Positions 8,798 through 47,560 of a DNA stretch of 64,000 nt are shown here, in pieces (position 1 is the stretch's first letter; every line of letters begins with the position of its first letter). Location of the stretch: assembly GCA_002995645.1 (NCBI GenBank), contig PUHO01000012.1:87653-151652 (forward strand), in the 5' to 3' direction. The stretch comes from SAR324 cluster bacterium (GTDB lineage Bacteria; SAR324; XYD2-FULL-50-16; HCM1). The notes beneath the pieces were generated by a model, which was not told the origin of the DNA, ran no database searches, and saw only the letters and a list, made by a program, of their open reading frames with translations. The position numbers and the translations under genes were made by a program.

Positions 8798-9256
8798 ATG
8801 AATATAAAACAAGAAAAAAAATCTATACCTGTATGGGCATGGGGGATCGGTTTATTTTATACCTCGTTTGTTCTTGTTTTTGCAGGATTTGCTATATATA
8901 GTACTCATCTTGGATTTCAATTTGTTACGCCTGATTATTATAAAGATAGCGTGAACTATCAAAAGCATATTATGGCAAGACAGCGAGCGCAGAGCTTAGC
9001 AGAAAAACCGACTCTAATATATAATGCAAAAGAACAGAATATAACGTTAGAGATACCGGTTACTTTTACAAGTGGCAAATTGTTTTTTTATAGACCAAAC
9101 GATCACAAGCAAGATAGGAGTCAAGTACTTTCAAATCAAGCGACGCAAGTCTTTTCTGTACAAGACTATAGTAAAGGCAAGTGGAAAATGCAACTAACAT
9201 GGCAAACAAACGGGAAGTCGTATTACCAAGAAAAAGAATTGTATATTACAAACTAA
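8798..9256 (+). CDS. ccoH: FixH/CcoH family protein
   Basis: 152 aa with an N-terminal TM helix, immediately after ccoG. Size and architecture fit FixH. Confidence 0.55.
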   Translation: MNIKQEKKSIPVWAWGIGLFYTSFVLVFAGFAIYSTHLGFQFVTPDYYKDSVNYQKHIMARQRAQSLAEKPTLIYNAKEQNITLEIPVTFTSGKLFFYRPNDHKQDRSQVLSNQATQVFSVQDYSKGKWKMQLTWQTNGKSYYQEKELYITN

Positions 9257-9870
9257 AATTCATCACATTCTTTACAATGTATGAGTTTAGGGCACGCTGT
9301 TTTATGACATTGTGTTTGTATGTTTTGGCTAAGACGGAGTAGCCCTCTTTCCATATGTGCCGAACGCGATCCTTTAAATGCAAAAGCCGTATTTGCCGTG
9401 GCGAGTGCTGTTAGTTTTGTAAAGAGTGTTGCCAAGTCTTTAATATAGCTTACTTTTGTGTTAGTTAGCTTAGCTTGTAATATGGGATAAAGCCATTGCC
9501 CACTTTCCCCGGTTACAATTACTTCGTTTAACATGGCAAACGAACGGGAAGTCCTATTACCAAGAAAAAGAATTGTATATTACAAACTAAAATTCATCAC
9601 ATTCTTTACAATGTATGAGTTTAGGGCACGCTGTTTTATGGCATTGTGTTTGTATGTTTTGGCTAAGAAGGAGTAGCCCTCTTTCCATATGTGCCGAACG
9701 CGATCCTTTAAATGCAAAAGCCGTATTTGCTGTGGCGAGTGTTGTTAGTTTTGTAAAGAGTGTTGCTAAGTCTTTAATATAGCTTACTTTTGTGTTAGTT
9801 AGCTTAGCTTGTAATATGGGATAAAGCCATTGCCCACTTTCCCCGGTTACAATTACTTCGTCTATTCCTT
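9190..9870. repeat. Near-identical tandem direct duplication (2 x ~340 bp) spanning the fixH 3' end and the murF 3' end
   Basis: 9190-9534 matches 9531-9870 with only about 6 substitutions. Each copy carries the last ~20 codons of fixH (+ strand) and the last ~84 codons of murF (- strand). Confidence 0.85.
9253..9534 (-). pseudogene. Duplicated MurF C-terminal fragment (93-aa chimeric ORF)
   Basis: The protein is identical to MurF residues ~390-477 (VIVTGESGQWLYPILQAKLTNTK…CKECDEF) except 2 substitutions, with a new MLNE N-terminus. It lies inside duplication copy 1. Confidence 0.7.
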
Positions 9871-11020: not shown

Positions 11021-11049
11021 AGTATGCTAAAAATAGAACTGTATTTATA

Positions 11050-12756: not shown

Positions 12757-12776
12757 AAACTAGGCGGTGTATAGAG

Positions 12777-13931: not shown

Positions 13932-13961
13932 TAAATACGTAGTAAAAAATTTTTAATTATA

Positions 13962-14258
13962 TTAAGAGTTTAGTTTTCTTTTTCTTTCTAAACAAGCTTG
14001 TTGTTTTGCTTCTTTAAGGGTGTCGGCAAAAATAAAGCCTTGAAATTTGGAAGTTAAAATATAATATTCACGTAATCCTACTTTTTTAATAATCACTTCT
14101 TCAAATAAAGGTTTAAAACAAGTGGCGCGCCATATATTCGCTTTAATTTTACGCATAGGTTGATCGGCATATAGTGAAGAGCTATATACAAGAGCAAGGG
14201 ATATGATTCCAATATAAAAAACTAAGTATTTTGTGCTAGAGAAGAATGCCATGTACAA
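13962..14258 (-). CDS. Hypothetical small signal-peptide protein
   Basis: 98-aa ORF with an N-terminal hydrophobic segment. No recognisable motif. Confidence 0.3.
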   Translation of the reverse strand: MYMAFFSSTKYLVFYIGIISLALVYSSSLYADQPMRKIKANIWRATCFKPLFEEVIIKKVGLREYYILTSKFQGFIFADTLKEAKQQACLERKRKLNS

Positions 14259-15265
14259 ATAGATTGAAAAATAAAGTCCGGCGTAATGCGATTAAGGCAA
14301 GCATAGGTGTCTGGATCTTTTAATTTACAAGGTATTTTACCATGATGACTACAAGGTCGGCAAGGTAAATTGGTGGAGAAAATACGACTAGAAGGTAAAA
14401 AGGGGCTGAACCCCATGTTTTTAGTAGGTCCAAAGATAGTAAAGCAAGGAGTCCCCACTGCTTCGGAACAATGAGTTATTGCCGAATCATTGCAAACAGT
14501 GAGTAATGCATTTTGCAAAAAAGCCGCTGTTTGCATAATACTTAATTTACCGGCAAGGTTAGTAGAAATAGCTTTTGTTTTTTCATGTATACGAAAGGTT
14601 GGCACATCGCTTTGCCCACCAACAAGATACGGTTGGTATCCGGCTTTTGCAAGCATGTGGATTAAGCTAACAAAATAATCTTCATGCCAACACTTAGGCA
14701 TATGCGCTGCACCAGGCGCTAAAGCAATGATTGGTTTTGTTGTATTTACCATTAATTTATTAATTAAGTCTTGATCTTGCGAAGAAGGAAATAATTCAGT
14801 GTAGCTTGCTAAAAGTTTTTTTGATTTTAATAAAGCAAGGTAAGTTTCCCTTCTTGGCGGTATTTTGTTATCTGAAAACAGATGCCATTTAACTTGTGCC
14901 ATACGAAGTAAAGAAAAGCGGTTTAGTTTTCTGATTTGTGGCACTGTGTTAAAAAGAGGAGCAAGCTTCCATGTAATTAAGTTAGATCGTAGCGAGTTAT
15001 GTGCGTCTAGTACAAGGTCGTATTGATTCTTTTTTAATTGTTTAACAATTTGGGTAAAGCTAGTTTGACTTGCTTTTTCTAGTCTGTAAATGGTATTAAT
15101 ATAGGGACTATTTTCGTGTACTTGCCAGTGAGTGGATAAAGTAAGAAAATCAATTCTTGCTGAAGGATACATTCTTCTTGCTTCTCGAAATAAAGGAGAT
15201 AGCAAGATAATATCACCAAGAGCGGAAAAACGTATAATTAATATTGATTGTATAGATTTTAACAT
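14222..15265 (-). CDS. ADP-heptose:LPS heptosyltransferase (glycosyltransferase family 9)
   Basis: GT9 N-terminal signature ILIIRFSALGDIILLSPLFREA. The start is chosen at the internal Met (MLKSIQSILIIR); the longer ORF-track form overlaps the divergent gene. Confidence 0.75.
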   Translation of the reverse strand: MLKSIQSILIIRFSALGDIILLSPLFREARRMYPSARIDFLTLSTHWQVHENSPYINTIYRLEKASQTSFTQIVKQLKKNQYDLVLDAHNSLRSNLITWKLAPLFNTVPQIRKLNRFSLLRMAQVKWHLFSDNKIPPRRETYLALLKSKKLLASYTELFPSSQDQDLINKLMVNTTKPIIALAPGAAHMPKCWHEDYFVSLIHMLAKAGYQPYLVGGQSDVPTFRIHEKTKAISTNLAGKLSIMQTAAFLQNALLTVCNDSAITHCSEAVGTPCFTIFGPTKNMGFSPFLPSSRIFSTNLPCRPCSHHGKIPCKLKDPDTYACLNRITPDFIFQSICTWHSSLAQNT

Positions 15266-16319
15266 GGCTATTTTTTTACGTAAAATTAAAACGCCCCCTA
15301 ATAGAATTTTATTAGTACGCCCTGATGCGCTTGGCGACTTATTGCAAACTTTACCGGCAATAGAAGCGCTTAGCAAACAAATCCACGCCCATGTTGCGGT
15401 GTTAATTCATTCTAGGAACGTTTCCCTTTTAGAAGCAAATAGTGCCGTTAATCAAATTATTACTTGGGATTGCCCAGTTGCAAAAAACGAGATTATACAA
15501 GGTAAGTTTGACGTTGTATTAAGTTTTTACTCTTCTTTTCCTTTGCCGACAACTATTAAAAAAGCACTACGTACGATTCCAAAACGGATTGGCGCTATTA
15601 AAAACTTAGCTATGTTACGTCAGTGGAATTATCCGGTTTTACAAAGTCGTTCTATGAACTTAAAAAATGAAGCTTTGTATAATGCAGAATTACTTAATGC
15701 TTTTACCTTTATTTTTGATATTAGTATAAAGAAACCGCGTCTAATTTGGCAAGCAGGAGAACTTGAAAAACAAAAAGAAAAATTTCCTTTTTTAGAGAAA
15801 AAAGTATTTACAATTGTAATGCATTATAGATTTGCCGGATCTTCGCCAACATGGCTAAAACAACAATATGCCGATACAGTGTATAAACTTTTATTAGACG
15901 GGAATAGAGTTGTGCTTGTTGGTTTTTTAGAAGAAGAACAACAGTGGCATGCTGAACTTAAATTAAAATATGAAAAACATTTTCCTGAACAGATAGTAGA
16001 TTTAACAAGTAAATTAAAGTTAAGAGAGCTTGCTTCGTTAATGCACTTTAGTCAGCTGTATATTGGTTCGTCTACTGGACCAACACACCTTGCCGCTAGT
16101 GTGGGTACGCCAATTATAGGGATATATTCGCCTTTACATGTTACAACAGAAATAAGATGGGCGCCGTATTTATATGAAGGAACTATTTTTAGCCCTACCG
16201 TTCCTTGTAAACCAAAATATAAGTGCGCCGGTGAAGCTTGTCCGTATTATTATTGTATGAAGTTAATTACCGCAGAACAGGTTAGACAAGCTGTGCAAAA
16301 GAGAAAGAAGGTTGGCTAG
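15264..16319 (+). CDS. ADP-heptose:LPS heptosyltransferase (glycosyltransferase family 9)
   Basis: GT9 signature ILLVRPDALGDLLQTLPAIEAL. The start is chosen at Met45 of the ORF-track protein (MAIFLRKIK…). The ATG at 15264-15266 overlaps the divergent gene's start on a CATG. Confidence 0.75.
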   Translation: MAIFLRKIKTPPNRILLVRPDALGDLLQTLPAIEALSKQIHAHVAVLIHSRNVSLLEANSAVNQIITWDCPVAKNEIIQGKFDVVLSFYSSFPLPTTIKKALRTIPKRIGAIKNLAMLRQWNYPVLQSRSMNLKNEALYNAELLNAFTFIFDISIKKPRLIWQAGELEKQKEKFPFLEKKVFTIVMHYRFAGSSPTWLKQQYADTVYKLLLDGNRVVLVGFLEEEQQWHAELKLKYEKHFPEQIVDLTSKLKLRELASLMHFSQLYIGSSTGPTHLAASVGTPIIGIYSPLHVTTEIRWAPYLYEGTIFSPTVPCKPKYKCAGEACPYYYCMKLITAEQVRQAVQKRKKVG

Positions 16320-17547: not shown

Positions 17548-17609
17548 TTATTGATAAATAAAAGTTGACACAAGGGGAAACCTTGTAAGTATACGAGTTT
17601 GCGGAACGT

Positions 17610-17638
17610 TTGACATGAATAAATAATTAACATATAGT
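17610..17638 (+). promoter_or_regulatory. Candidate sigma70-type promoter for nrdJ (TTGACA-17-TATAGT)
   Basis: TTGACA at 17610-17615, a 17-nt spacer, TATAGT at 17633-17638, about 75 nt upstream of the nrdJ ATG. Confidence 0.3.
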
Positions 17639-17714
17639 TTAAAAACGACTTTTATTCAAAATAGAATAAAAAGTATCTGAATTATCTTACTTACCAAATT
17701 ATTATATATTAAAA

Positions 17715-20606: not shown

Positions 20607-21473
20607 ATGTCCTCTTGGATTCAAAAAATACTTTCGACAGAAAAGAAAACAGCTGTGCCAGCTGGAGTTTGGGTTAAATGTACGTCTTGCGGAGAAACTT
20701 TATATAGCAAGGATTTAGAAACGAATAATAAGGTCTGCAATAATTGTGGGTATCATTTTCGTTTAAATACAAAAGAAAGAGTGCGTTTATTACTTGAAGA
20801 AGGATATAAAGAGTTATTTACTAATATAACAACTGCCGATCCGTTAAAGTTTCAAGATACAAAAAAATATAAAGATAGAATTAAGCAAACTGTCGCAAAA
20901 GCAGGTGTAAACGAATCAATTAGCGTGTTTAGCGGTCTTTTGCAACAGCATTTTGTTTGTCTTACTGTTTTTAATTTTAGCTTTATGGGCGGATCTATGG
21001 GCTCGGTTGCCGGTGAAAAAATTACACGTGCCATTGAATATTCTTTAGAACATAAATACCCGTTTATTCTTGTTAGTGCTTCCGGTGGGGCAAGAATGCA
21101 AGAAGGCACTTTGTCTTTAATGCAAATGGCGAAAACAAGCGCGGCATTAGCGAAATTAGCGAAAGCAAAACTTCCTTTTATTTCTGTTTTAACTGATCCG
21201 ACAACTGGCGGCGTTTCAGCTAGTGTGGCTATGTTAGGCGATTTAATTATTGCCGAACCAAAAGCTTTAATTGGCTTTGCCGGTCCTCGTGTTATTCAAC
21301 AGACTATAGGGCAAGCTTTACCGGAAGGGTTTCAGCGTTCTGAGTTCTTACAAGAAAAAGGAGCGATTGACGCAGTTATAGAGCGTAATCGTCTTAAATC
21401 CGAGATAGGTTTATATTTAGATTACCTTTTCCCAGCAACGCAAGTTAAGTTACCATTAAAGGCAAAAGCTTAG
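20607..21473 (+). CDS. accD: Acetyl-CoA carboxylase carboxyltransferase beta subunit
   Basis: N-terminal Zn finger CTSCGETLYSKDLETNNKVCNNCGYH. Carboxyltransferase domain (FSFMGGSMGSVAGEKITRA). Confidence 0.9.
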   Translation: MSSWIQKILSTEKKTAVPAGVWVKCTSCGETLYSKDLETNNKVCNNCGYHFRLNTKERVRLLLEEGYKELFTNITTADPLKFQDTKKYKDRIKQTVAKAGVNESISVFSGLLQQHFVCLTVFNFSFMGGSMGSVAGEKITRAIEYSLEHKYPFILVSASGGARMQEGTLSLMQMAKTSAALAKLAKAKLPFISVLTDPTTGGVSASVAMLGDLIIAEPKALIGFAGPRVIQQTIGQALPEGFQRSEFLQEKGAIDAVIERNRLKSEIGLYLDYLFPATQVKLPLKAKA

Positions 21474-21475
21474 TT

Positions 21476-22525
21476 TAAATAGTTATTTAAATCTAAGATC
21501 GTGCCAAAGTTAGCAGGCGGGTAATAAAAATTTGAATCTAAGATCGTGCCAGATTAGAAGGCAAACAAGAAAAAGATTGAATCTAATATCGTGCCAAGTT
21601 GGTTATGTAACTTTGAAAAAACTTGAATCTAATATCGTGCCAAAGCTGGCAGGTAAGTAAGAAAAAGATTGAATCTAAGATCGTGCCAAGTTAGGAGCAA
21701 ACAAGAAAAAAACTTGAAACTAATATCGTGCCAAAGTTAGTATATAACTTTAAAAAGATACTCATATTATGTACTCTTGCAAGAGCGAGAATATAAAGCC
21801 CTGTCTTAAAACAAAGTAATTATTTTATATAGATTGTCTTTTTCTTTTGCAAAATAAATCATTGAAAACAACAGGTTAATATAAATAGTTATTTGAATCT
21901 AAGATCGTGCCAAGTTTGCAAGAAGGTAATAAAAAAGATTGAATCTAAGATCGTGCCAAAGTGAGTAGCAAACAATAAAAAAGATTGAATCTAAGATCGT
22001 GCCAAGTTGGCAGGTAAGCAATAAAAATTTAAATCTAAGATTGTGCCAAATTGGTTATGTAACTTTGAAAAAGTGTTCATATTTTGTATTCTTTTAAGAA
22101 GATATATGCAAGAATACAAAGCCCTTCCCTTAAAACAAAGTAATTATTTTATATAGATTGTCTTTTTCTTTTGCAAAATAAGTTGTTAAAATCAAAAGCT
22201 TAATATAAATAGTTATTTGAATCTAAAATCGTGCCAAGTTAGTAGCTTACAATAAAAAAAATCTTGAATCTAATATTGTGCCAAGTTAGTAGCTTACAAT
22301 AAAAAAAATCTTGAATCTAATATTGTGCCAAGTTAGCAGATAAGCAATAAAAAAGATTGAATCTAAGATCGTGCCAAGTTAGTAGCCTACAATAAAAAAG
22401 ATTGAATCTAATACCGTGCCAAAGTTAGTATATAACTTTAAAAAGATACTCATATTATGTACTCTTGCAAGAGCAAGAATATAAAGTCCTGTCTTAAAGA
22501 AAAGTAATTACTTGATATAGATAGC
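21476..22525. repeat. Higher-order tandem satellite: 3 units (~407, ~325, ~318 bp) holding 6+4+5 copies of a ~45-bp unit
   Basis: The conserved 24-mer core TTGAATCTAAGATCGTGCCAAGTT recurs 15 times at about 45-bp spacing. Each block is followed by a ~150-bp tail with palindromes (CTCTTGCAAGAG, TTTTGCAAAA). The repeat starts 3 nt after the accD stop. Confidence 0.9.
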
Positions 22526-22580
22526 TTTCTCCTATCAAGCAAGTTATTGCTATTACAGGAAAAAGCTTGTTTTGTGAAGG

Positions 22581-24035
22581 TTATTTATTCCAAGATTGAG
22601 CAAATTGAGCAAGCATTTTTACGCCAACGCCAGTTGCTCCGTTACTTGGATATATATCTTTATCTGGCACTTCAGCAGATGTTCCGGCAATATCAAGGTG
22701 TACCCAAGGGGTATCTTTAACGAACGCTTCTAAAAAAGTAGCTCCGCAAATACTAGATCCTTCTGCTGGAGTTCCCATATTTTTCAGATCGCCAACAGTT
22801 CCTTTAACGGCATCTCTGTAGCGTTTAGATAAAGGTAATTGCCAAATCGGTTCTTCTAGATTAGTACCAATTTTTTCAAGCTGTTCGTATAAATGTTGAT
22901 CATTTGTCATAGCGCCGGTATGCTCTTTTCCAAGTGCAATAATACAAGCACCGGTTAAAGTTGCAATATCAATAATCGCGTCCGGTTGGAACGTAGCAAT
23001 ACCATAAGAAATACAATCTGCTAAAATTAAGCGCCCTTCTGCATCTGTGTTTAAAATTTCCACAGTTTTGCCGTCATAGGACGTAACAACGTCGCCAGGC
23101 TTGGTTGCACTTCCGCTAGGTAAATTCTCAGCTAATCCAATTAAAGCGATAATATTAATTTTAGGTTTTTTTTCGCTAATAATTTGCATAGCTCCTAATA
23201 CAGCGGCTGCCCCGCACATATCTGTTTTCATTTCATGCATTTTAGCTGCCGGCTTTAAAGAGATACCGCCAGAATCAAAAGTAACGCCTTTGCCAACAAG
23301 AAGCAACGTAGGCGCATCTTTTTTATAAGAATAGCGTAACCCAACAACAACAGGATCTTCTACTGAGCCTTTGCCTACGGCATGAAGTAAATTAAGTCCT
23401 TCTTTTTTAATTTGATCTAGTGATAAACTGAAAAAGTTTAGTTGCTGATTTTTAGCTATCTCTTTAGCTTGTTTGTGAAATAAAGAAGGAGTTAGCAAAT
23501 TAGCCGGCGTATTGCCAAGATTACGAGCAAGGTAAACGGCATTGGCATGAATTTGCGCTTGTTTAAGTGGCTCTGTGAAATGTTCCGTTGTAAGCTCACT
23601 ATAGAGAAATAACGATTCTATTTTTTTATATTTTGGCTTAGATTGGAATGTATCATAGTAGTAATTACCAAGTAGGATACCTTCTATAATCGCTTCTATA
23701 TTAACAACGATAACGTTATCTGTTGTTGCCGGGAGGCACAGCGATACGTCTGTGATGCTTTCTTTTAATAATAGTTTTCCAATACGACTTCCTAAAGCAA
23801 GAAAAGAAGGGCTTGTTTTAGTTAAACTAATAACGTATAAAGTTTGTCCTTCATTGCCATGAAAGGTATGAATCGTATCATCTGGTAAAGGCGTTAATTT
23901 AATATAGCTAGCGGCGCAAGTAAAAAGATAAGGATTATCTTCTTGCCATTTTTGCGAGACCAAAAGTTGCTTTTCTTCGTTTAAAAAAGCAATATGGTGC
24001 TTTACTTGGTTATTTGTATTGACTTGTATTTGCAT
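22581..24035 (-). CDS. pepA: Leucyl aminopeptidase (M17)
   Basis: M17 catalytic block NTDAEGRLILADCISYG and metal-binding region VGKGVTFDSGG. SD-like AGGAG upstream. Confidence 0.85.
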   Translation of the reverse strand: MQIQVNTNNQVKHHIAFLNEEKQLLVSQKWQEDNPYLFTCAASYIKLTPLPDDTIHTFHGNEGQTLYVISLTKTSPSFLALGSRIGKLLLKESITDVSLCLPATTDNVIVVNIEAIIEGILLGNYYYDTFQSKPKYKKIESLFLYSELTTEHFTEPLKQAQIHANAVYLARNLGNTPANLLTPSLFHKQAKEIAKNQQLNFFSLSLDQIKKEGLNLLHAVGKGSVEDPVVVGLRYSYKKDAPTLLLVGKGVTFDSGGISLKPAAKMHEMKTDMCGAAAVLGAMQIISEKKPKINIIALIGLAENLPSGSATKPGDVVTSYDGKTVEILNTDAEGRLILADCISYGIATFQPDAIIDIATLTGACIIALGKEHTGAMTNDQHLYEQLEKIGTNLEEPIWQLPLSKRYRDAVKGTVGDLKNMGTPAEGSSICGATFLEAFVKDTPWVHLDIAGTSAEVPDKDIYPSNGATGVGVKMLAQFAQSWNK

Positions 24036-24139: not shown

Positions 24140-24367
24140 TTATGCTGATACTTCTTTTTCTATATCCTTACTGTTTTTATTATCTGGCATAACGATAATT
24201 TGAGCGTTATCGTTTTCTAGCGAGATTTCGCGCATACAATTAACTAAAAGTAATTGTTTTGGGTCTTTAATATTACTTTCTAGTATGTCAAAAGCTTTAT
24301 TTAAAGGCATATTATGTTGAATTAATAAAATTAGCTCTTTAGTAAGATCATGTAAAATACGTTCCAT
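24140..24367 (-). CDS. Hypothetical 75-aa protein
   Basis: ORF only. No motif recognised. Confidence 0.25.
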   Translation of the reverse strand: MERILHDLTKELILLIQHNMPLNKAFDILESNIKDPKQLLLVNCMREISLENDNAQIIVMPDNKNSKDIEKEVSA

Positions 24368-24439
24368 AAGTATAATATCAAAAAGTAATTAATATATTTT
24401 AGATTACAACTTATATACAATTACCATGCCATACTTTAC

Positions 24440-25775
24440 GAACGAGAAGAAGTTAAGAAGGGTTAGACGAGGAATCTAGTTGCTTTTTATTTTGATTCCA
24501 TAAGTTTATCATATAGGTTTTATGAGGTCGTGATTGACGTCAATGGCATTTTCTATGTTTAGTACGAGCTAATATAGGGGCGGTGTTTTTTTATGAGGTG
24601 GTACATTTGTCATCATATATACAGCAAAAAATTTTGCATTGATTGCAAATTGTTTTCTTGCAACAGTTGCTATATAAACGAGAAGAAATTAAGAAAGGTT
24701 AGACGAGGAATCTAGTTGCTTTTTATTTTGATTCCATAGGTTTATCATATCGGTTTTATGAGGTCGTGATTGACTCCAACGGCCTTTTCTATGTTTAGTA
24801 CGAGCTAATATAGGAACGGTGTTTTTTTATGAGGTGGTACATTTGTCATGTCATATCGCGAATTTCCTATTGTGCTTTTTCACACATACGAACGGCAAGA
24901 AAATTTTGCATTGATTGCAAATTGTTTTCTTGAAACAGGTGTTATATAAACGAGAAGAAGTTAAGAAGGGTTAGGCAAGGAATCTAGTTGCTTTTTATTT
25001 TGATTCCATAAGTTTATCATATCGATTTTATGGGGGCGTGATTGACGCCAACTAGCTAATATAGGAACGGTGTTTTTTATGAGGTGGTACATTTGTCATG
25101 TCATATCGCGAATTTCCCATTGTGCTTTTTCACACATACGAACGGCAAGAAAATTTTGCATTGATTGCAAATTGTTTTCTTGAAACAGTTGCTATATAAA
25201 CGAGAAGAAATTAAGAAGGGTTAGGCAAGGAATCTGGGTGCTTTTTATTTTGATTCCATAAGTTTATCATATCGGTTTTATGAGGTCGTGATTGACTCCA
25301 ACGGCATTTTCTATGTTTAGTACTAGCTAATATAGGGTGGTGCCTTTGGTACATTTGTCATGTCATATCGCGAATTTCCTATTGTGCTCTTTCACACATA
25401 CGAACGGCAAGAAAATTTTGCATTGATTGCAAATTGTTTTCTTGCAACAGTTGCTATATAAACGAGAAGAAGTCAAGAAGGGTTAGACAAGGAATCGGGT
25501 TGCTTTTTATTTTGATTCCATAAGTTTATCATATCGGTTTTATGAGGTCGTGATTGACTCCAACGGCATTTTCTATAGGCTTGCAGGTCTTCATCACAAA
25601 ACGCATTTTGATTTTCCCAGCATTTAATACCTAGTTTAGTACGAGCTAATATAGGGTGGTGTTTTTTCATAAGGCGGTACATTTGCCATGCCATATCGCG
25701 AATTTCCCATTGTGCTCTTTCACACATACGAACGGCAAGAAAATTTTGCATTGATTGCAAATTCATAGCAAATTG
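24440..25775. repeat. Tandem array of 4 decaying ~235-270-bp copies of the thyX 3' end, plus the genuine copy
   Basis: Units begin at ~24443, 24678, 24949, 25200 and 25462 (ACGAGAAGAA…). Each carries thyX 3'-coding segments (…TTTGATTCCATAAGTTTATCATATCGGTTTTATGAGGTCGTGATTGAC… and …CATATCGCGAATTTCC.ATTGTGCT.TTTCACACATACGAACGGCAAGAAAATTTTGCATTGATTGCAAATT…). The distal copies are the most degraded. Confidence 0.85.
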
Positions 25776-26276
25776 TTCTCTTGAAACGGTCGCCATTGGC
25801 AAAGCAAAACGAGCGTCTTCTTGTTTAATACCGGCGTTAGTACATTTAGTATAAAAGTTAATACATGCTTGTTGTAGTTGCGTCCATTCTTCTAGAATAG
25901 CAGGATTTTCTTTAAACGATGGAGGCGTTACAAAAGCACCTATTCCTTTTGTAAAGTTAACATATCGTTGCGACATTTCTTCGCGTTCTACGCCGATATG
26001 GTGGCGATTAAATTGCGCTGTTGCCGCACGTGAAATCCCGTCTACAACAAAAATGAAATGGCTTTGCCGAAGTGGGCTACTATGTCCGGTTTGTAGCTTT
26101 TCCGCGATAAAGTCTTCCATTTGCTGTTCGCTAATATCTCCGTTATTAATTTGCTGCCAAAGTTCGCTTGCGCTGATTCGAGAGTAGCAAATACGAAAAG
26201 CGGAGTATATAATCGCAATAGGATTATTAGAAACGCCAAGTAATTCAACTTTTATATCTGTTTGTCCTGATTTCAT
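25473..26276 (-). CDS. thyX: Flavin-dependent thymidylate synthase ThyX (C-terminus runs into the repeat array)
   Basis: ThyX fold blocks (QFAMNLQSMQNFLAVRMCERAQWEIRDMA). The signature region reads FNRHHIGVEREEMSQRY, a divergent form of RHRx7S. The last ~35 codons are encoded by the first repeat unit. Confidence 0.75.
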   Translation of the reverse strand: MKSGQTDIKVELLGVSNNPIAIIYSAFRICYSRISASELWQQINNGDISEQQMEDFIAEKLQTGHSSPLRQSHFIFVVDGISRAATAQFNRHHIGVEREEMSQRYVNFTKGIGAFVTPPSFKENPAILEEWTQLQQACINFYTKCTNAGIKQEDARFALPMATVSREQFAMNLQSMQNFLAVRMCERAQWEIRDMAWQMYRLMKKHHPILARTKLGIKCWENQNAFCDEDLQAYRKCRWSQSRPHKTDMINLWNQNKKQPDSLSNPS

Positions 26277-36650: not shown

Positions 36651-36674
36651 AGTTACGCCAAATGAAATAGGTTG

Positions 36675-37805: not shown

Positions 37806-37845
37806 TTAATGAAGTTAAAAAAAAATATAAGTTATCCTAACAAAG

Positions 37846-37960
37846 TAAAGTCCTTTTGGCAAGACAATAAATAAGAAGTTACAATGTGCTCTTAATTTTA
37901 ACAAAGTAAAATTTTTTTTACAAGAAAATAAATAAAAAAAATTATAACATGTTCTTCTGA
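37846..37960. repeat. Imperfect ~60-bp tandem duplication that includes the last 15 nt of the downstream GT9 gene
   Basis: Unit 1 is TAACAAAGTAAAGTCCTTTTGGCAAGACAATAAATAAGAAGTTACAATGTGCTCTTAATT. Unit 2 is TAACAAAGTAAAATTTTTTTACAAGAAAATAAATAAAAAAAATTATAACATGTTCTTCTGATT and contains the GT9 stop region. Confidence 0.5.
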
Positions 37961-38949
37961 TTTAAAATTTGCATTGCCGAAGTGAATACTTCGTCAACAG
38001 AAATTTGCGTAAGACAATGGTAGTGCCCTAAAGGACAGGTTCTTTGAAAACAAGGGCTGCAAGAAATAGGCTGTTGTATGATCGTTGCTTGTTTGTTAAG
38101 TGGAGGCGTCCAGGTCCTTGAAGTAGATCCGTAAATAGCTATTTGTGGAATACCTAGCGCACTTGCTACGTGCATGGCGCCGGAGTCGTTCGTAATGGCA
38201 AGCTTCCCTCTTTGAAATAAAGCAATGAGTTGTATGATATTAGTTTCCCCACAAAGATTATAAACTTTACTTGGTAAAGATAGGGTATCGTTTCGCATGC
38301 CAACAAAAACAACCTTTTCTCCTTGTTGGGTTAATTTTTTTGCTAAAGCAATAAAACGATGAGGAAACCATTCTTTAGCTCTTCCATAGGCGGTAAACGG
38401 TGCTATAAAAATAGCGTTGGCATATTCTTCTTGCCAGCGTTGCGGTAAAACACGATCTATTTCTTCTGTTGTTAAACGAATGTTTGGTTGATATTGTTCG
38501 TGTTCCTTGTCTTTGCCAATAAGATGTAGATGCTCAATATAGGCCGGTATTTTTTGTTTGTTTTGGTATTTACATGCCGGATTAAGCAAGAAAGATCGCC
38601 CGTCGTTAGCGTAGCCAATACGATACGGTATTTTTGAACTATATGCCATTAAAGCCGAAGAAAAACTAGGCGGTAAAATAAAAAAGTGAGTATAGCCTTG
38701 ATCTCGCAAAGTTTTGCCAAAATTGTACGGCGATGTTTTTGTTTTGTCAAAAAGAAGAGTTTTGCCGTTATGCGCTAGTGGGATAGATTGTAAAGCCGGT
38801 ATGGTTAGCAAGTCTAATTGTCCCTTACATTTTTGTAAGCTTTCAAGTAAAGCTAGACAAAATCCGCTGGCAATAAGGACGTCGCCAAGCCAATTTGGTA
38901 AACGTACGAGTACTTTCGAATCTGAGTTAAATTGTAAATGATTATCCAT
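37942..38949 (-). CDS. ADP-heptose:LPS heptosyltransferase (GT9; WaaF-like)
   Basis: LVRLPNWLGDVLIASGF…; C-terminal NDSGAMHVASALGIPQIAIYG. Confidence 0.75.
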   Translation of the reverse strand: MDNHLQFNSDSKVLVRLPNWLGDVLIASGFCLALLESLQKCKGQLDLLTIPALQSIPLAHNGKTLLFDKTKTSPYNFGKTLRDQGYTHFFILPPSFSSALMAYSSKIPYRIGYANDGRSFLLNPACKYQNKQKIPAYIEHLHLIGKDKEHEQYQPNIRLTTEEIDRVLPQRWQEEYANAIFIAPFTAYGRAKEWFPHRFIALAKKLTQQGEKVVFVGMRNDTLSLPSKVYNLCGETNIIQLIALFQRGKLAITNDSGAMHVASALGIPQIAIYGSTSRTWTPPLNKQATIIQQPISCSPCFQRTCPLGHYHCLTQISVDEVFTSAMQILNQKNML

Positions 38950-39124
38950 AGGCTCCCGGTGTATTTGTAAAAAAATTATTAGTTAATATTAATTTGGCTT
39001 CTTTCTTGCTTAATCTTCTAGAATGCAAGGATGCATTAGTTTTTATTGAAGGATTAAAGTTTAATATAACAACTTATGAATAAGTTTAGTATAAGCTTAT
39101 TAACATTTGTTTATAAAGGTCAAC

Positions 39125-40093: not shown

Positions 40094-40115
40094 AGTATAG
40101 TCTATACTTATATAA

Positions 40116-40155
40116 AAGAGTAAGGACGTAAACAAAGCTTGCTCTTTTATATTTT
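40116..40155 (+). terminator. Rho-independent terminator after rlpA
   Basis: Stem AAGAGTAAG / CTTGCTCTT with one G-U pair, a 13-nt loop, then TTATATTTT. Confidence 0.5.
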
Positions 40156-40183
40156 ATTACACTTTGTATTTTAATATAAGAAA

Positions 40184-41011: not shown

Positions 41012-41151
41012 TAAAATGCTTTTATCCTTGTATTATCTCTTTTTAATTGGTTTAATACTTGCTTTTTTTATTAAATTTTATCATAATATATTCAGTTTGA
41101 TTGTAGGCATGCCTTACATCACATAATAATTTCTTTGTTACTGTTGGTACA

Positions 41152-43014
41152 ATGAGTAAAATAGTTTTAGTTTCAGATACAAATAACCTGATTTACGATT
41201 CCTTTAAAGAAGCGCTTGTTTCTTATATAGGTTCCCAAAATTTAATATATCTAAAAGATACAAGTATGCTTGTGCCAACTTTAAAAGAGGCGGCAGTTGA
41301 TATTGTATTTTTAGAATATACTGATTCGGTTAAAGAACTGATTTCTATTATTCGCGATGATGCGTTACTTTCTCATTTAATTATTATTTTAACCTATGGC
41401 GGAAGGAAGCAACTTTCACTTTCTGTTGCAAAAGACCTAGGGGCGGACGATATCCTTGAAAAACCGTTTGAAGTTATAGAAGTTAGGCAAAAAATAGATC
41501 TTTTTCATGCCAATACAACCTATTCGCAAGATCTTACGCATATTAATATTGTTGATCCCGTTATGGCAGAACTATTAGCTTCGGCAAGTAACGCGATACA
41601 ACAAACAAAGCAAAATCAAGAAGATAGTATTGAAGAAAGAGAACAACAATCGCCTATTCATATTAATAACCCTCTTGATACAGAACAAGACGACGATATA
41701 GCAAACGAGTTTAACCTATCTGATTTAGATGACGAAGAGAGCTCTATTACAGCAGCTAGCAGTATAAACAAAGAAGAACGTACTTTGCTTTTAGACGAGG
41801 AAGATAACGAAAAACTAACTTCGCCTATTAACATTCATGTACCTGATACGCAAGAATCAAATGACTTTCAAAATAAACCGGCAACACCGGATCAATACGG
41901 CATTTTAGCAATCCCTGTTGTTAGTGATACGCCGGATAGTAGCTTAAATCTATATGAAGAAGAGGATTCGCAAGATGATAGAGATTTATTTGCTGCTGAA
42001 GAAGAAGAAGCGGAAGCAGTTTCTCTTTTTGGAGAATATAATGATGACCTGCTACCATTAGAGTCGAACTTTATTTTTGAAGACGATACGAGCGAAGTTG
42101 AAACCGATTTTACTAGTGACAACGATACAAGCGAAGAAGAGCCCGGTTTTATCTTTGTAGAAGATGATAGCGAAGAAATAAAGTTAGATCCAGATTTTAC
42201 CTTTGAAGAAGATAGCGCAGAAATAGATCTAGATCCAGATTTTACCTTTGAAGAAAATACGAGCGAAGACGAATCAGACTTTTTATTTGAAGAAAATACG
42301 AGCGACAACGAAGAGGAATCGGACTTTTTATTTGAAGAAGTTACAAGCGAAGACGAAGACGAATCAGACTTTTTATTTGAAGAAGATACGAGCGAAAACG
42401 AAGAGGAATCAGACTTTTTGTTTCAAGACAGCAGTAATGAAGAACTAGTGCCAGAGCCTAACTTTACTATTGAAGAAGATAGCGAAGAACTACAATTAGA
42501 ACCTAATTTTATTGTTGAAGAAGACAGCAACGAAGAAATACAATTAGACCCGGATTTTTCCTTTGAAGAAGATACCACGGAAAGCGATATATTTGTAGAT
42601 TCAAACGAAGAAGAACTAGCGGCATTAGACAATATAAATACTTTGCAACAACCTTCTTTTATTGACACAGAAGACCAAGTTGAGCAAGAAGAAGATAATT
42701 TTATTTTTTCTTTAGAGAATTATAAAAGTAATGAAAGTGATACGTTTTCTCAAAAATTGAAAGAAGCCGGTTTGCATTTAGAAACAAAAAGACATACTGA
42801 TATGTCTAGTATTTCTATTCCTAGTGACGATATACACGCACACATAGCTAAAGACGTATTTGCGTTAAATGACCTTACAATGAGTGATATTATCCCAGAT
42901 GAAGACAAGGCAGACGCAAAAGAAAACAGGCAACCGTCTTTAGACAAACAAGCTTTAATTAAAGATATTCTTGAACGTGCAACAGAAGATATTACGAAAA
43001 TTATTCAAAAGTAA
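41152..43014 (+). CDS. Atypical (pseudo-)receiver domain protein with a long acidic repeat-rich tail
   Basis: The N-terminal ~115 aa have the CheY-like beta1-beta5 pattern (IVLVSDT…, VDIVFLEYTD, IIILTYGG, ILEKPF), with Glu where the phospho-acceptor Asp is expected and Ser-Asp for the acidic pair. Residues ~150-520 are D/E-rich with repeated DPDFTFEEDS / ESDFLFEENTS units, encoded by 60-66-bp DNA repeats around 42140-42440. Confidence 0.5.
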   Translation: MSKIVLVSDTNNLIYDSFKEALVSYIGSQNLIYLKDTSMLVPTLKEAAVDIVFLEYTDSVKELISIIRDDALLSHLIIILTYGGRKQLSLSVAKDLGADDILEKPFEVIEVRQKIDLFHANTTYSQDLTHINIVDPVMAELLASASNAIQQTKQNQEDSIEEREQQSPIHINNPLDTEQDDDIANEFNLSDLDDEESSITAASSINKEERTLLLDEEDNEKLTSPINIHVPDTQESNDFQNKPATPDQYGILAIPVVSDTPDSSLNLYEEEDSQDDRDLFAAEEEEAEAVSLFGEYNDDLLPLESNFIFEDDTSEVETDFTSDNDTSEEEPGFIFVEDDSEEIKLDPDFTFEEDSAEIDLDPDFTFEENTSEDESDFLFEENTSDNEEESDFLFEEVTSEDEDESDFLFEEDTSENEEESDFLFQDSSNEELVPEPNFTIEEDSEELQLEPNFIVEEDSNEEIQLDPDFSFEEDTTESDIFVDSNEEELAALDNINTLQQPSFIDTEDQVEQEEDNFIFSLENYKSNESDTFSQKLKEAGLHLETKRHTDMSSISIPSDDIHAHIAKDVFALNDLTMSDIIPDEDKADAKENRQPSLDKQALIKDILERATEDITKIIQK

Positions 43015-43027
43015 ATAATCGTTTTAT

Positions 43028-44137
43028 ATGACAGCCTATAAAAAAAAACCGACGCCGTATCTCCTCCTATTTTCCATTATTTGTTTACTTGGCATTGGTA
43101 TTTTAATGGTCTATTCTTCTAGTGCCATTTATGCTAATACCTATAATCGAAGTAATTTTTATTTCTTTAATAGACAACTTGGCTTTGTTGGGCTTGGTAT
43201 CCTTCTTTTTTTTGTCGTTATAAAATATCCCTATCAAAAATATAGATCTTGGATTCCTGTTTTACTAGGCATCTGTTTTGTTGCGCTTATTCTTGTTTTA
43301 ATTCCACGTATTGGACATGAAGTCGGGCATGCAAAACGTTGGTTTCGTATTGCTCATTTTAGTTTGCAACCTAGTGAACTGCTCAAAATTGCTATTTTAC
43401 TTTGGGGCGCTGATTTCTTAGATCGTAAACATGCTTATCTTGCCCAATTTTCACGTAGCTTGTTTCCGGCTTCTATTATCCTAGGTGTTTATTGCGTTCT
43501 TTTATTGGCGCAACCTGATTTTGGAACTGCCGTTTTGCTGGTTACTACGTTTATGATAATGTTCTTTGTTGCTGGCGGAAGAAAAACGCATATCTTTTTT
43601 AGTGGGCTTGTTATTAGTGCGATTGGCTCGGCGTTAGTGATTTTTAGCCCGTATCGTTTTCGTCGTATTGAATCGTTTTTAACCCCATGGAATGATCCAA
43701 CAGGAAGCGGTTATCAATTAATTCAATCGCTCATTGCCGTTGCAACCGGTGGTATTTTTGGAAAAAATTTAGGAAACTCAACGCAAAAACTATTTTTCTT
43801 GCCTGAAGCTCATACTGATTTTATTTTTGCTATTCTTGCAGAAGAGCTAGGCTTTATTGGTGTTTGTATTGTTGTTTTTCTTGTGTTGCTTTTTTTGCAA
43901 CAATCTTTAAAAATTGCTCGTCATTGTAAAGATAGATTTGGTAGAAACTTAGCTTGCGGTATTGCCGCGCTAGTCACTTTCCAAGCTATTATTAATATGA
44001 GCGTTGTTCTTGGTATTTTCCCAACAAAAGGGATCCCGTTTCCTTTTGTTAGTTACGGAGGGAGTTCTTTGATTACTATGATGATATTATCCGGCATATT
44101 ATTCAATATCGCTGTTAGCAATGAAACGCAAAAATAA
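43028..44137 (+). CDS. ftsW: Peptidoglycan glycosyltransferase, SEDS family (FtsW/RodA); FtsW by context
   Basis: 10-TM SEDS protein (…PEAHTDFIFAILAEELGFIG…). Immediately upstream of, and overlapping, murG. Confidence 0.8.
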   Translation: MTAYKKKPTPYLLLFSIICLLGIGILMVYSSSAIYANTYNRSNFYFFNRQLGFVGLGILLFFVVIKYPYQKYRSWIPVLLGICFVALILVLIPRIGHEVGHAKRWFRIAHFSLQPSELLKIAILLWGADFLDRKHAYLAQFSRSLFPASIILGVYCVLLLAQPDFGTAVLLVTTFMIMFFVAGGRKTHIFFSGLVISAIGSALVIFSPYRFRRIESFLTPWNDPTGSGYQLIQSLIAVATGGIFGKNLGNSTQKLFFLPEAHTDFIFAILAEELGFIGVCIVVFLVLLFLQQSLKIARHCKDRFGRNLACGIAALVTFQAIINMSVVLGIFPTKGIPFPFVSYGGSSLITMMILSGILFNIAVSNETQK

Positions 44138-45212
44138 ACCTACTAGCATTATAATTGCCGGCGGTGGTAGTGGCGGACATTTATTCCCGGGCATTGCTAT
44201 TGCGCAAGAACTGGAAGCCCAGTTGGATTCAAGTATAATCTATTTTATTGGCTCACGTTACGGCATTGAGTCGCGCGTTTTTCCTACTTTAAAATACCGC
44301 TGTTTCTTATTACCTATATCAGGATTATACAAAGTTGGTGCTATACGTAAGCTGCTTGGTTTACTGCGCTTTGCTTATTCTGTTGTATATACCTTTTTTT
44401 TGACGTTATATATACGCCCTCACGTCGTGATTGGCGTTGGCGGTTATGCGTCCGGTGCGGCTATGTTGTGCGGTTTATTACTACGTAGAAATTTAGTTAT
44501 TCAAGAACAAAACGCATCACCGGGCATGACAAATCGCTTTCTAGGTAAGTATGCCAAACTAGCTTTTGTGCCGTTTTCCGGTATGGAAAAGTTTTTTCCT
44601 AATCCTGTTGTTGTTGGCAATCCTATTCGTAAAGAAATATTGCAAGTTAAAGCATATACGCCACAAGACAAGGTCAATTTGTTGATTGTTGGCGGGAGTC
44701 AAGGTTGCCATGCTATTAACATGGCTTGCATAGAAGCCTTGCCTATTCTTGCCGATTTAGCTGATCAGATTCGTATTATACACCAAAGCGGCTACCGAGA
44801 TTATGAGATTTTGCAAGACGCTTATGCAAAATATCCAAAGCTAGAAGCGCAAGTTTTCCCTTTTGCTGAGAACATGGCAGAATTATATAGTCAAAGTCAT
44901 TTGCTATTGTGCCGTTCCGGTTCTATTATTCATGAAATTATTGTAGCCGGTAGGGGTATGTTGTTAGTGCCGTTTCCTAATGCGAGCGGGAATCATCAGT
45001 TGCGAAACGCTGAGTATATTGTAGAAAAGCAAGCAGGTATTTTGTTAGAACAAGACGAGCAATTAGGCGAAAAGCTGATACAAGTTTTACAGAGATTGTT
45101 GCAGAATACGAATGAAATAGAAGAGATGGCAAAGCAAGCGAAGAGCTTAGCAAAGACAGATGCGACAAAAGAAATCAGTGAAACAATTCTTTCTTTTTAT
45201 AAGCTGAAGTAA
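44121..45212 (+). CDS. murG: UDP-GlcNAc:undecaprenyl-PP-MurNAc-pentapeptide GlcNAc transferase
   Basis: N-terminal G-loop IIAGGGSGGHLFPGIAIAQEL. C-terminal GT28 domain. 17-nt overlap with ftsW. Confidence 0.85.
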   Translation: MKRKNKPTSIIIAGGGSGGHLFPGIAIAQELEAQLDSSIIYFIGSRYGIESRVFPTLKYRCFLLPISGLYKVGAIRKLLGLLRFAYSVVYTFFLTLYIRPHVVIGVGGYASGAAMLCGLLLRRNLVIQEQNASPGMTNRFLGKYAKLAFVPFSGMEKFFPNPVVVGNPIRKEILQVKAYTPQDKVNLLIVGGSQGCHAINMACIEALPILADLADQIRIIHQSGYRDYEILQDAYAKYPKLEAQVFPFAENMAELYSQSHLLLCRSGSIIHEIIVAGRGMLLVPFPNASGNHQLRNAEYIVEKQAGILLEQDEQLGEKLIQVLQRLLQNTNEIEEMAKQAKSLAKTDATKEISETILSFYKLK

Positions 45213-47560
45213 ACAATTTCATGCTATAAATATAACTTGTGTAGAAATGTTGTGAATTTTCGCCAGAGGTTGCCAATTTTTTCTAAGAACATAGCAGAGC
45301 TATATAGCCCCTGTGATATTGTTCTTATTCTACCTATTATTCATGAAATGCATGTAGCCAGTAATAGTATGTTATTATTGCCTTTTTCTTTCGCTAGTAA
45401 GAATCATTAATTACAGAATGTAGAAGAGATGGCAAAGCAAGCGAAGAGCTTAGCTATGTTTAAAAAATTTAACAACAACCGGCATGTTATGGTTCCGATT
45501 TTGTCATAGCCATCAAGGGTATATTGTTAGTATCGTTTCCTTGTGCTAGCAGATAGAAGAGATCCAAGCAAAGGCAGGTCGATAAAAGAAATTAGTGAAA
45601 CAATTATTTCTTTTTATAAGCTAAGGTAAACAAGTTCAAATTTAAAACTTTATGTGACGTACTCAAAGCTAGAAGCGTAAGTTTTTCTTGTTGTGGTTCC
45701 AGTTTTGTCATAGCCAGCAAGAGTATATCGTTAGTATTGTTTTCTTGTGCTAGCAGATAGAAGAGATCCAAGCAAAGGCAGGGCAAGAAACAATCCTTTC
45801 TTTTTATAAGCTGAAGTAAACAATTTCATGCTGTAAATATAACTTGTGTAGTAGTGTTGTGAAGTTTCGCTAAAGCTTGCCAAGTTTTCCCTAAAAACAT
45901 AGCAGAGCTATACAGCAAAGCCGTTTATTATGATATTGTTCTTATCCTGCCTATTCTCCATGAAATGCTTGTAATCGTTAAGATTATGTTATTGTTGCTT
46001 TTTTGTGCTAGTAAGAATCATTAATTACAGAATATAGAAGAGATGGCAAAGACAGGGCGACAAAAGAAATTAGTGAAACAATCCTTTCTTTTCATAAGTC
46101 TGCATACATAATTCAATTTAAAACTTTATGTGACGTACTCAAAGCTAGAAGCGTAAGTTTTTCTTGTTGTGGTTCCAGTTTTGTCATAGCCAGCAAGAGT
46201 ATATCGTTAGTATTGTTTCCTTGTGCTAGCAGATAGAAGAGATCCAAGCAAAGGCAGAGCAAGAAACAATCCTTTCTTTTTATAAGCTAAAGTAAACAAT
46301 TTCATGCTATAAATATAACTTGTGTAGAAATATTGCCAAGTTTTGCCAGAGATTGCCAATTCCCCCTAAAAACATAGCAGCGCTGTATAGCCCCGTTTGT
46401 TATGATGATGTTGTTCTTATCCTGCCTATTATTCATGAAATGTTTGTAGCCGGTAAGAGTATGTTGTTATTGCCTTTTTATTGTGCTAGTGAGAATCATT
46501 AATTACAGAATATAGAAGAGCTTAGCAAAGACAGGGCGACAAAAGAAATTAGTGAAACAATCCTTGCTTTTTATAAACTGAAGTAAATAATTTCATGCTG
46601 TAAATATAACTTGTGTAGTAGTGTTGTGAAGTTTCGCCAGAGGTTGCAATTTTTCCCAAGAACATAGCAGAACTATATAGCCCCTTTTGTTATGTTGTTA
46701 CTGCCGTCCAACCACCCCTTATCCGGCGCAGGATTAAAGCCACCTATGTTGTTACTGCCGTCCAGCCAGCCAGCCAACCAAGCAAAGACAGGGCGACAAA
46801 AGAAATTAGTGAAACAATCCTTTCTTTTTATAAGCTAAAGTAAACAATTTCATGCTATAAATATAACTTGTGTAGAAATATTGCCAAGTTTTGCCAGAGA
46901 TTGCCAATTCCCCCTAAAAACATAGCAGCGCTGTATAGCCCCGTTTGTTATGATGTTGTTGTTCTTATCCTGCCTATTATTCATGAAATGCTTGTAGCCG
47001 GTAATAGTATATTATTATTGCCTTTTTCTTGCACCAGTAAGAATCATTAATTACAGAATATAGAAGAGATGGCAAAGCAAGCGAAGAGCTTAGCCAAGAC
47101 AGATGCGACAAAAGAAATCAGTGAAACAATCCTTTCTTTTTATAAACTGAAGTAAATAATTTCATGCTGTAAATATAACTTGTGTAGAAATATTGCCAAG
47201 TTTCGCCAGAGGTTGCAAGTTTTCCCAAGAACATAACAGAGCTATATAGCCCCGTTTGTTATGATATTGTTCTTATCCTGCCTATTATTCATGAAATTAT
47301 TGTAGCCAGTAATAGTATATTATTATTGCCTTTTTGTGCTAGTAAGAATCATTAATTACAGAATATAGAAGGCAATCAAGCAAAGGCAGGGCAAGAAACA
47401 ATCCTTTCTTGTTATAAGTTGAAGTAGAGATTTCAATTTAAAACTTTATGTGGCGTACTCAAAGCTAAAAGCGTAAGTTTTTCTTGTTGTTCCAGATTTG
47501 TTATAGCCAGCAAGGTATATTGTTAGTATCGTTTTCTTGTAAAGGGAAATGCGATAAAAC
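45213..47560. pseudogene. About 2.3-kb array of decayed tandem copies of the murG 3' end (about 5-6 units, two alternating sub-unit types)
   Basis: Recognisable, repeated murG 3'-coding strings: …AGATGGCAAAGCAAGCGAAGAGCTTAGC…, …AAAGAAAT(C/T)AGTGAAACAAT.CTTTCTTTTTATAAGCTGAAGTAAACAATTTCATGCT…, …CAAAGCTAGAAGCG(C/T)AAGTTTT…. ORF-track fragments 45604..45786, 46320..46502 and 46868..47050 translate to MurG-like pieces (…LPIIHEMFVAGKSMLLLPF…). An odd GC-rich insert lies at ~46690-46790. Confidence 0.85.

Follow-up and report, generated by a model that had tools for sequence, protein, structure and literature searches.

We analyzed a 64-kb stretch of contig PUHO01000012.1 (positions 87,653 to 151,652; assembly GCA_002995645.1) from a SAR324 cluster bacterium, hereafter "the window," in which copies of gene 3' ends have accumulated in tandem between genes. 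All counts given below refer to this one window of one assembly. Tandem Repeats Finder (TRF) and a second repeat finder independently detected four large arrays, all located between genes, with periods of 46/324, 250-262, 334, and 476 bp and a combined length of 4,821 bp, or 7.5% of the window (Table 1). All array sequence that could be assigned is the 3' end of the adjacent gene itself, and tail fragments ~50-470 bases long were identified from fixH, murF, accD, pepA, thyX, and murG. The window has a GC content of 35% and is very gene-dense: gaps are ≤40 nt at most of the remaining 44 junctions, many genes overlap, and the map is 92% coding once the arrays are collapsed, so that the arrays are nearly the sole long spacers. 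Three of the four convergent junctions carry an array, compared with 1 of 43 other junctions (2 of 43 if a weak duplication beside a GT9 gene is counted; Fisher p 0.001-0.002). A preliminary description of this DNA had reported five such loci, three of them at convergent meetings of genes. The convergent placement was borne out, and four loci, all well in excess of chance expectation and all built from gene 3' ends, were retained; the fifth, at the GT9 gene, was not.

Table 1. Arrays, their source segments, and associated features in the window
Feature	Position	Strand	Description
fixH-murF unit 1	9195-9528		Genuine fixH tail 9195-9256 (+); promoterless murF-tail pseudo-copy 9253-9528 (-)
fixH-murF unit 2	9529-9862		fixH-tail pseudo-copy 9529-9590; genuine murF tail 9587-9862 (-)
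accD source segment	21391-21486	+	Last ~80 nt of accD (gene 20607-21473), stop codon, ~13 nt downstream
accD-pepA array	21474-22580		Three ~324-bp higher-order blocks, each of 4-6 46-bp units plus a ~135-bp tail
pepA source segment	22581-22626	-	Last ~46 nt of pepA (gene 22581-24035); parent of the 46-mer
thyX array	24441-25472	-	Four decaying copies downstream of the gene (25473-26276, -)
thyX copies	about 25178-25435, 24925-25173, 24652-24923, 24441-24651	-	Codons ~162-267, stop codon, ~12-37 nt downstream
thyX source segment	25436-25795	-	Within and just after thyX; encoded C terminus kept in relatives
Weak intergenic duplication (~61 bp)	37840-37938		Beside GT9 gene (37942-38949, -); gene end not shown to be included
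murG source segment	44822-45212	+	Last ~390 nt of murG (gene 44121-45212)
murG array	45213-47560	+	~9 incomplete copies of parent 44822-45290, with internal deletions
Bidirectional intrinsic terminator hairpin	47589-47622		Single copy, between the murG array and the secG stop (47644)

Between fixH and murF, a 334-bp segment is repeated twice in direct tandem. The two units are identical at 326 of 334 positions (97.6%), in agreement with the near-identical pair first described. Each unit contains the last 58-62 nt of fixH on the plus strand and the last 274-276 nt of murF on the minus strand; collapsed to a single copy, the locus becomes a tail-to-tail overlap of the two genes by 4 nt. At this junction, the youngest of the duplication junctions, homology read from the sequence is at most 3 nt (CTA). 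The same junction generates an ATG that opens a 93-amino-acid open reading frame (ORF) at 9253-9534 on the minus strand, equivalent to a C-terminal fragment of MurF. This predicted ORF is likely an annotation trap, and possibly a new small protein. It had been suggested that the repeat reshapes the MurF C terminus. However, the pseudo-copy and the gene end in the same residues (...HCKECDEF), and the suggestion is therefore not supported.

A pair of exactly two copies at 97.6% identity is also what two strain variants joined in tandem by an assembler could in principle look like, and for units that are 92-97% identical, the copy numbers are those of the assembled sequence. Nevertheless, assemblers do not invent copies that diverge by 5-40% and carry private indels, shared deletions, and nested structure, as seen in three of the four arrays, and each array sits inside the contig with intact genes on either side. 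We therefore regard it as extremely improbable that the repeats were made or miscounted during assembly.

The ~1.1-kb array at the convergent accD-pepA junction is compound, comprising fifteen 46-bp units arranged in three blocks with a higher-order period of ~324 bp. This confirmed the higher-order satellite noted previously. However, the satellite had been linked to accD alone, and the array also holds 46-mers that come from the end of pepA. Every block tail closes with 60-95 nt of decayed accD 3' end (21803-21892, 22148-22216, and 22515-22572), with scores of 32, 45, and 47 against a null of 18.5 +/- 2.6 that 1, 0, and 0 of 1000 shuffles reached; the last of these fragments lies directly against the stop codon of the true pepA gene. 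The final ~35-46 nt of pepA align with the 46-mer. In addition, positions 21455-21520, which span the accD stop and the first 46-mer, align with positions 22552-22615, which span the decayed accD tail and the genuine pepA tail (score 36 versus 15.9 +/- 2.5; 0 of 1000 shuffles). Since the junction of the accD stop with the 46-mer matches the junction of the decayed accD fragment with the pepA tail, the 46-mer can be identified as an amplified copy of the pepA tail.

Alignment found no origin in pepA or accD for the first ~65 nt of the block tails. A perfect 12-nt palindrome (CTCTTGCAAGAG) lies in this part of the tails at 21775-21786 and again at 22463-22474. We also considered whether the 46-mers form a clustered regularly interspaced short palindromic repeat (CRISPR) array. 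The candidate "spacers" are 24-26 nt long and fall into subfamilies, Pfam scans detected no cas genes, and Rfam returned nothing; the 46-mers are not CRISPR repeats because these "spacers" are homologous to one another.

Downstream of thyX, the four decaying copies plus the genuine gene were found as first described. In their thyX-derived parts, the three proximal copies match the gene at 93-95% identity, the distal copy is much more eroded, and every copy carries stop codons. The same 57 nt (19 codons) are missing from all copies, and a further 12 nt are missing from the three proximal copies examined. These common deletions point to descent from one first copy. The C terminus of ThyX had been thought to end in repeat-derived sequence, but an alignment showed that its last 50 residues are conserved in 12 relatives (46-66% identity), with 15 invariant positions (L215, G216, K218, C219, W220, N222, C227, D228, E229, C237, W239, S240, R243, P244, and H245). 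The conserved stretch (...LGIKCWENQNAFCDEDLQAYRKCRWSQSRPHK...) includes the 19 codons that every copy lacks. Given this conservation, the gene end is the ancestral source rather than a product of the repeat.

At its distal end, the thyX array stops 9 nt short of a putative sigma-54-like -24/-12 motif read from the sequence (TGGCATGGTAATTGT, 24417-24431, minus strand). The motif stands 50 nt upstream of a small ORF (24140-24367, minus strand; 75 amino acids) with weak homology (E about 1e-7) to the small ORF that follows thyX in relatives, two of which have sigma-54-like motifs of their own upstream of it (TTGGCACGGTACTTGAA and TTGGCACGGGTCTTGAA). The motif may thus mark the edge of the space in which duplications are tolerated. 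Five relatives keep the order sppA-thyX-small ORF, with a spacer of 200-360 bp after thyX, and neither a thyX-tail fragment (z ≤ 1.7) nor any long-period repeat was present in these five spacers. The nearest ThyX relatives are 64-69% identical, and the named ones are metagenome-assembled genomes (MAGs) labelled Candidatus Lambdaproteobacteria, SAR324 cluster, Deltaproteobacteria, or Proteobacteria. The next-best MurG homologues are 45-48% identical, and a scan of genome contigs for sister genomes with PepA gave a best match of 46% identity; the collections searched yielded no sister genome. The syntenic loci of the relatives have a GC content of 44-57% versus 35% in the window, and by this comparison the lineage has shifted strongly toward AT.

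The murG array is the largest, at 2.3 kb, with two unit types that alternate as a 476-bp higher-order repeat and many internal deletions. An array of decaying copies had been recognized here before, but it comprises about nine partial copies rather than 5-6. Its first 78 nt may be ancestral 3' flank. Positions 45225-45277 were tried as a decayed copy of murG 44800-44860 and rejected on alignment, in which only 45278-45295 matches 44861-44878. No secG-derived sequence was found in the array. One copy carries an unrelated GC-rich insert of ~100 nt (46680-46780) with an internal duplication of ~20 nt and a (CCAG)4.8 microsatellite. The terminator hairpin beyond the array (AAAAACCTCTTT...AAAGAGGTTTTT) has z values of -4.5 on the plus strand and -3.75 on the minus strand. 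Because the hairpin was left unduplicated, the array lies between the murG stop codon and the terminator, and it would be transcribed as a 2.3-kb 3' untranslated region of murG if there is no earlier termination.

Together, these features support the tandem duplication and decay of gene 3' ends that the preliminary description had proposed. The array units are decaying pseudogene fragments: relative to the genes, the copies have acquired stop codons and in-frame deletions and have lost G and C. Mismatches in the thyX copies fall mostly at positions where the gene has G, and in the middle part of the murG units, 21-25 of 37 mismatches are at gene G or C positions. This pattern fits drift toward the AT-rich composition of the genome. 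The claim of repeated events also held. Divergence ranges from 2.4% to >35%, indicating that the duplications differ in age, and the nesting of periods (46-bp units inside a 324-bp period; two unit types inside one of 476 bp) shows repeated events at one locus. A gradient of increasing age with distance from the gene, also claimed, applies to thyX but not to murG, where erosion is greatest in the copy next to the gene (63% identity) and a far copy at 47060-47232 is the most gene-like (92.5%).

Mobile or programmed origins of the arrays were examined as well. Comparison of repeats across the arrays found no family common to different loci, no flanking or terminal inverted repeats were present at the arrays, and Pfam annotation of the window ORFs contained no transposase, integrase, or reverse transcriptase. 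Mismatches involve all four bases, are mostly transitions, and are not adenine-specific. The lack of a shared family, of inverted repeats, of these enzymes, and of adenine bias rules out mobile elements and diversity-generating retroelements (DGRs). Dispersed repeats of the miniature inverted-repeat transposable element or repetitive extragenic palindromic type were likewise rejected, given the lack of a shared family and of inverted repeats and the origin of each array from its own neighbor gene. A silent-cassette system is not supported by the conserved thyX tail in relatives or by the nature of the parents (MurG, MurF, ThyX, AccD, and PepA), which are not surface products. RNA folding of the units was unremarkable (z of +0.5, -0.9, +0.4, and -0.2), an Rfam scan found only tRNA-Met, and neither promoter-like nor terminator-like sites were enriched in the units, with promoter-like counts at or below shuffle expectation.

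At the GT9 gene, which had been described as a two-copy array, the sole supported match is 38 nt at 79% identity (37840-37877 versus 37901-37938). It ends 4 nt short of the stop codon and was unreported by TRF; among 82 control block pairs taken from other spacers, 2 scored as high. This locus was therefore left out of the count. Copies of neighboring gene ends were sought in other long spacers (CARDB-AKR, 834 bp; AKR-NifU, 401 bp; ccoP-cytc, 263 bp; and others), and none were found. With the TRF settings of a published survey (PMC3287509), tandem repeats make up 5.98% of the window with a mean period of 130 bp, a density that describes only 64 kb of the genome. Tandem repeats with a period of ≥40 nt and a TRF score of ≥150 occur about once per 13-16 kb here; in a 1.2-Mb set of unrelated bacterial loci, their frequency was about one per 190 kb.

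Within coding sequence, the window has tandem repeats in only two places, and both periods preserve the reading frame: 45 nt in a 620-amino-acid acidic protein and 33 nt in the secG tail. These repeats fit the same high input of tandem duplications, filtered for reading frame. The acidic protein (ORF 41152-43014, plus strand) has no Pfam match and contains about ten in-frame repeats of 39-48 nt at 42061-42615 (E-x-DF-x-FEED-TSE). The secG gene (47644-48081, minus strand) encodes 145 amino acids, of which only residues 4-71 form the SecG domain, followed by a K/A/T-rich C-terminal tail. Its in-frame 33-nt tandem repeats (47673-47747; ATVDTKAKAK...) represent a repeat at a gene 3' end that truly extends the protein.

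To account for the position of the arrays, we placed 400,000 simulated tandem duplications, each 40-500 bp long, at random on the array-collapsed map, which is likely the ancestral one. Of these events, 70% fell inside one gene and disrupted it, 20% made a 5' fragment, 6.3% produced only 3' fragments, 2.4% were purely intergenic, and 0.55% contained a whole gene. Without a filter, the chance that all four arrays would be of the 3'-only kind is about 1.6e-5. Selection against gene disruption is sufficient for the 3' anchoring: because the filtered simulation reproduces it, a mutational mechanism specific to gene 3' ends is not required.

Gene 3' ends, and convergent junctions in particular, might instead be true mutational hot spots, where fork stalling or R-loops at transcription ends trigger template switching. 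The concentration of arrays at convergent junctions noted above would agree with this, as would the short distance of only ~12 nt from the stop codon to the distal breakpoint in the thyX array and in one murG unit type, and the occurrence of several events with different periods at each locus. However, 34% of the simulated 3'-only events already fall at the four convergent junctions, which make up 8% of all junctions, and the observed three of four arrays is compatible with that expectation, i.e., no significant excess (P about 0.12 by our binomial estimate). A seeded duplication also invites further events at the same place via unequal recombination. Moreover, the arrays are placed ahead of the terminator, in the interval that follows the stop codon, rather than at the terminator itself, and their orientation tracks the gene rather than replication: GC skew is positive throughout the window, and arrays occur on both sides of genes. 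Taking these points together, we consider a hot spot unlikely.

We favor the interpretation that the arrays are nonfunctional leftovers of short tandem duplications, anchored at gene ends by a selection filter, and assign it a probability of roughly 0.7. We infer slippage as the mechanism, neutrality of the copies, and a raised rate of origination. In the history proposed, short segments (46-476 bp) would be duplicated in tandem by replication slippage or template switching with little or no homology, in a lineage that generates or retains such duplications at an unusually high rate. Since the genome is tightly packed, almost any duplication interrupts a gene or leaves a 5' fragment that still has a promoter, and two types would survive. 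The first would span a convergent junction, leaving gene A whole in the first unit, gene B whole in the second, and two promoterless 3' fragments between them; the same event at a co-oriented or divergent junction would yield 5' fragments with promoters and start codons. The tails of both genes are present at two convergent junctions, fixH-murF and accD-pepA, and we read this signature as the footprint of a tandem duplication across a tail-to-tail junction. The second type would start in the 3' part of a gene and end in the short unoccupied stretch that precedes the next functional element. Both arrays built from a single gene tail halt short of such elements, thyX before the sigma-54-like motif and murG before the terminator. 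Surviving arrays might then expand, contract, lose internal segments, and undergo patch conversion through unequal recombination between units, while their copies would decay under AT-biased mutation.

Several observations weigh against this interpretation. Within the 46-mer, a 21-nt core (TTGAATCTAAGATCGTGCCAA) shows 15 mismatches to consensus in 315 positions versus 106 in 365 in the remainder of the unit, making it ~6-fold better conserved. Such a difference between core and spacer is unexpected because all positions of a unit share one history, and pure neutral decay does not predict it. The murG copies are mosaic, in that the last ~100 nt of the gene are 84-93% identical to the copies and the middle part is 65-73% identical, which needs gene conversion or some constraint on top of decay. 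A compact genome is expected to delete junk, yet arrays occupy the share of the window given above. Finally, with four loci, the filter model is inseparable from a mild 3'-end hot spot, and the entire basis is a single stretch of one assembly.

The conserved core and the murG mosaics bear on a further alternative, namely co-option, with the 46-mers as a tandem protein-binding array, the murG units as antisense sources, or the copies as conversion donors to the gene tail. On the minus strand, the core of each 46-mer (21487-22422) is TTGGCACGATCTTAGATTCAA and reads TTGGCACGATCTTAGA, one mismatch from TGGCAC-N5-TTG[AC] and close to a sigma-54 -24/-12 element. With one mismatch allowed, 14 of the 19 matches to TGGCAC-N5-TTG[AC] in the window are 46-mer cores (5.4 expected by chance), and the motifs upstream of the small ORF after thyX in two relatives are of the same sigma-54-like kind. 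However, the cores lack the canonical -12 GC, and the sigma-54 likeness is therefore kept as a lead only; a metagenome scan with the 21-nt core returned 0 matches. At murG, six units retain a promoter-like sequence (TTCACA/TTGGCA-16-TATATT, minus strand), and a 34-nt stretch (45421-45454) is 100% identical to murG inside an otherwise 63% identical copy. Gene conversion between the gene tail and the copies is suggested as the simplest reading of these mosaics. Against co-option, the promoter-like counts and RNA folding of the units described above offered no signal of function. The parents are cytoplasmic housekeeping enzymes, for which sequence variation would bring no obvious gain, and the thyX gene tail is conserved, not variable. 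Relatives also do without the thyX array, the sole array that could be compared. Co-option thus appears very doubtful. That the arrays are more than filtered junk in either sense, through a replication- or transcription-linked template-switch hot spot at gene ends or through domestication of at least one array (the 46-mers, or conversion by tail copies), is in our view quite unlikely.

The preferred interpretation, that of filtered duplication remnants, has precedent in other small genomes. Long-period (about 50-500 bp) noncoding tandem repeats in a small genome are also seen in Ehrlichia ruminantium. Most pseudogenes of that species are reportedly repeat-associated truncated gene fragments from ongoing duplication, which resembles the duplication-made fixH, murF, accD, pepA, thyX, and murG tails found here. 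The arrays had not been recognized as a described class of repeat, but E. ruminantium provides a described analogue, with noncoding repeats for which PMC10710844 describes an active process of expansion and contraction. Tandem repeats constitute 6.3% of the E. ruminantium genome with a mean period of 139 bp, compared with 1.6% and 81 bp in Wolbachia wMel and 0.38% and 70 bp in E. coli (PMC3287509, Table 4). That repeat content was called the highest reported for bacteria at the time (PMC3287509), and the same article attributes the repeats to slipped-strand mispairing. The density in our window (5.98%, 130 bp; 64 kb) is close to it. In contrast to the Rickettsiales member E. ruminantium, the organism studied here has its nearest homologues in MAGs labelled SAR324 or Lambdaproteobacteria and keeps genes for peptidoglycan, lipopolysaccharide, and a cbb3 oxidase. 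According to PMC10710844, E. ruminantium has long intergenic regions and is about 64% coding overall, as opposed to the background of about 92% coding here. Copy-number variability is a hallmark of the E. ruminantium repeats, whereas the present arrays are known from one assembly.

Other known systems share individual features with the arrays. Wolbachia VNTR-105 and VNTR-141 are intergenic tandem arrays with periods of 100-150 bp and internal deletions, for which slippage and concerted evolution were proposed (PMC3287509). The present arrays likewise have internal deletions within their periods. However, the Wolbachia periods are 98-99% identical and contain 23-bp hairpins thought to trigger slippage, whereas the units here derive from gene tails, are strongly diverged, and lack significant structure. 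In DGRs, too, a copy of a gene 3' end lies close to the gene, as the variable and template repeats do, and here it lies downstream; but here the targets are housekeeping enzymes, and there are many decaying copies instead of one template repeat. Silent cassettes such as the Anaplasma msp2 pseudogenes and Borrelia vls are similar in placing promoterless partial copies beside an expressed gene, and the patchy identity of the murG copies suggests some conversion. In contrast, the parents here are cytoplasmic or membrane housekeeping enzymes, the tail is conserved, and the copies have stops and frame-breaking deletions. In animal mitochondria, tandem duplication followed by random loss duplicates a boundary-spanning segment, after which each gene retains one working copy and the rest decays to spacer. 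By comparison with this general model, redundant pieces decay here as well, leaving both genes intact at the convergent junctions. The mitochondrial process involves whole genes and changes gene order, however, whereas here only 3' fragments are involved, the order is unchanged, and the arrays have been amplified.

If the rest of the genome is alike, E. ruminantium would be joined by a second bacterium, from an unrelated lineage, whose tandem-repeat content is comparable to its own. Its gene-dense background makes a selective filter on structural mutations unusually visible, and convergent junctions with both tails would be model examples of a neutral tandem duplication. Rates of duplication, deletion, and gene conversion in a bacterium could be measured well in a genome of this kind, which could also be used to ask why some AT-rich lineages gather repeats while remaining compact. 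In practical terms, assembly and annotation are likely to run into difficulty at the arrays, with spurious ORFs such as that at 9253-9534, and the arrays are candidate variable-number tandem repeat markers.

The Pfam content of the window includes a cbb3 oxidase cluster (fused ccoNO, ccoP, fixG, and fixH) along with murF, LptF/G, three GT9 heptosyltransferases, a class II ribonucleotide reductase, accD, pepA, thyX, sppA, dxr, cdsA, and uppS. Also encoded are a liv ABC transporter, rlpA, ftsW, murG, secG, tpiA, pgk, an FG-GAP protein, relA, and others. Two divergent GT9 ORFs (14222-15376, minus strand; 15132-16319, plus strand) overlap by 245 nt as listed, and one of them probably has its start codon called too far upstream. 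In the oxidase cluster, a single 712-amino-acid ORF (3849-5987, plus strand) fuses ccoN and ccoO, with COX1 and FixO domains.

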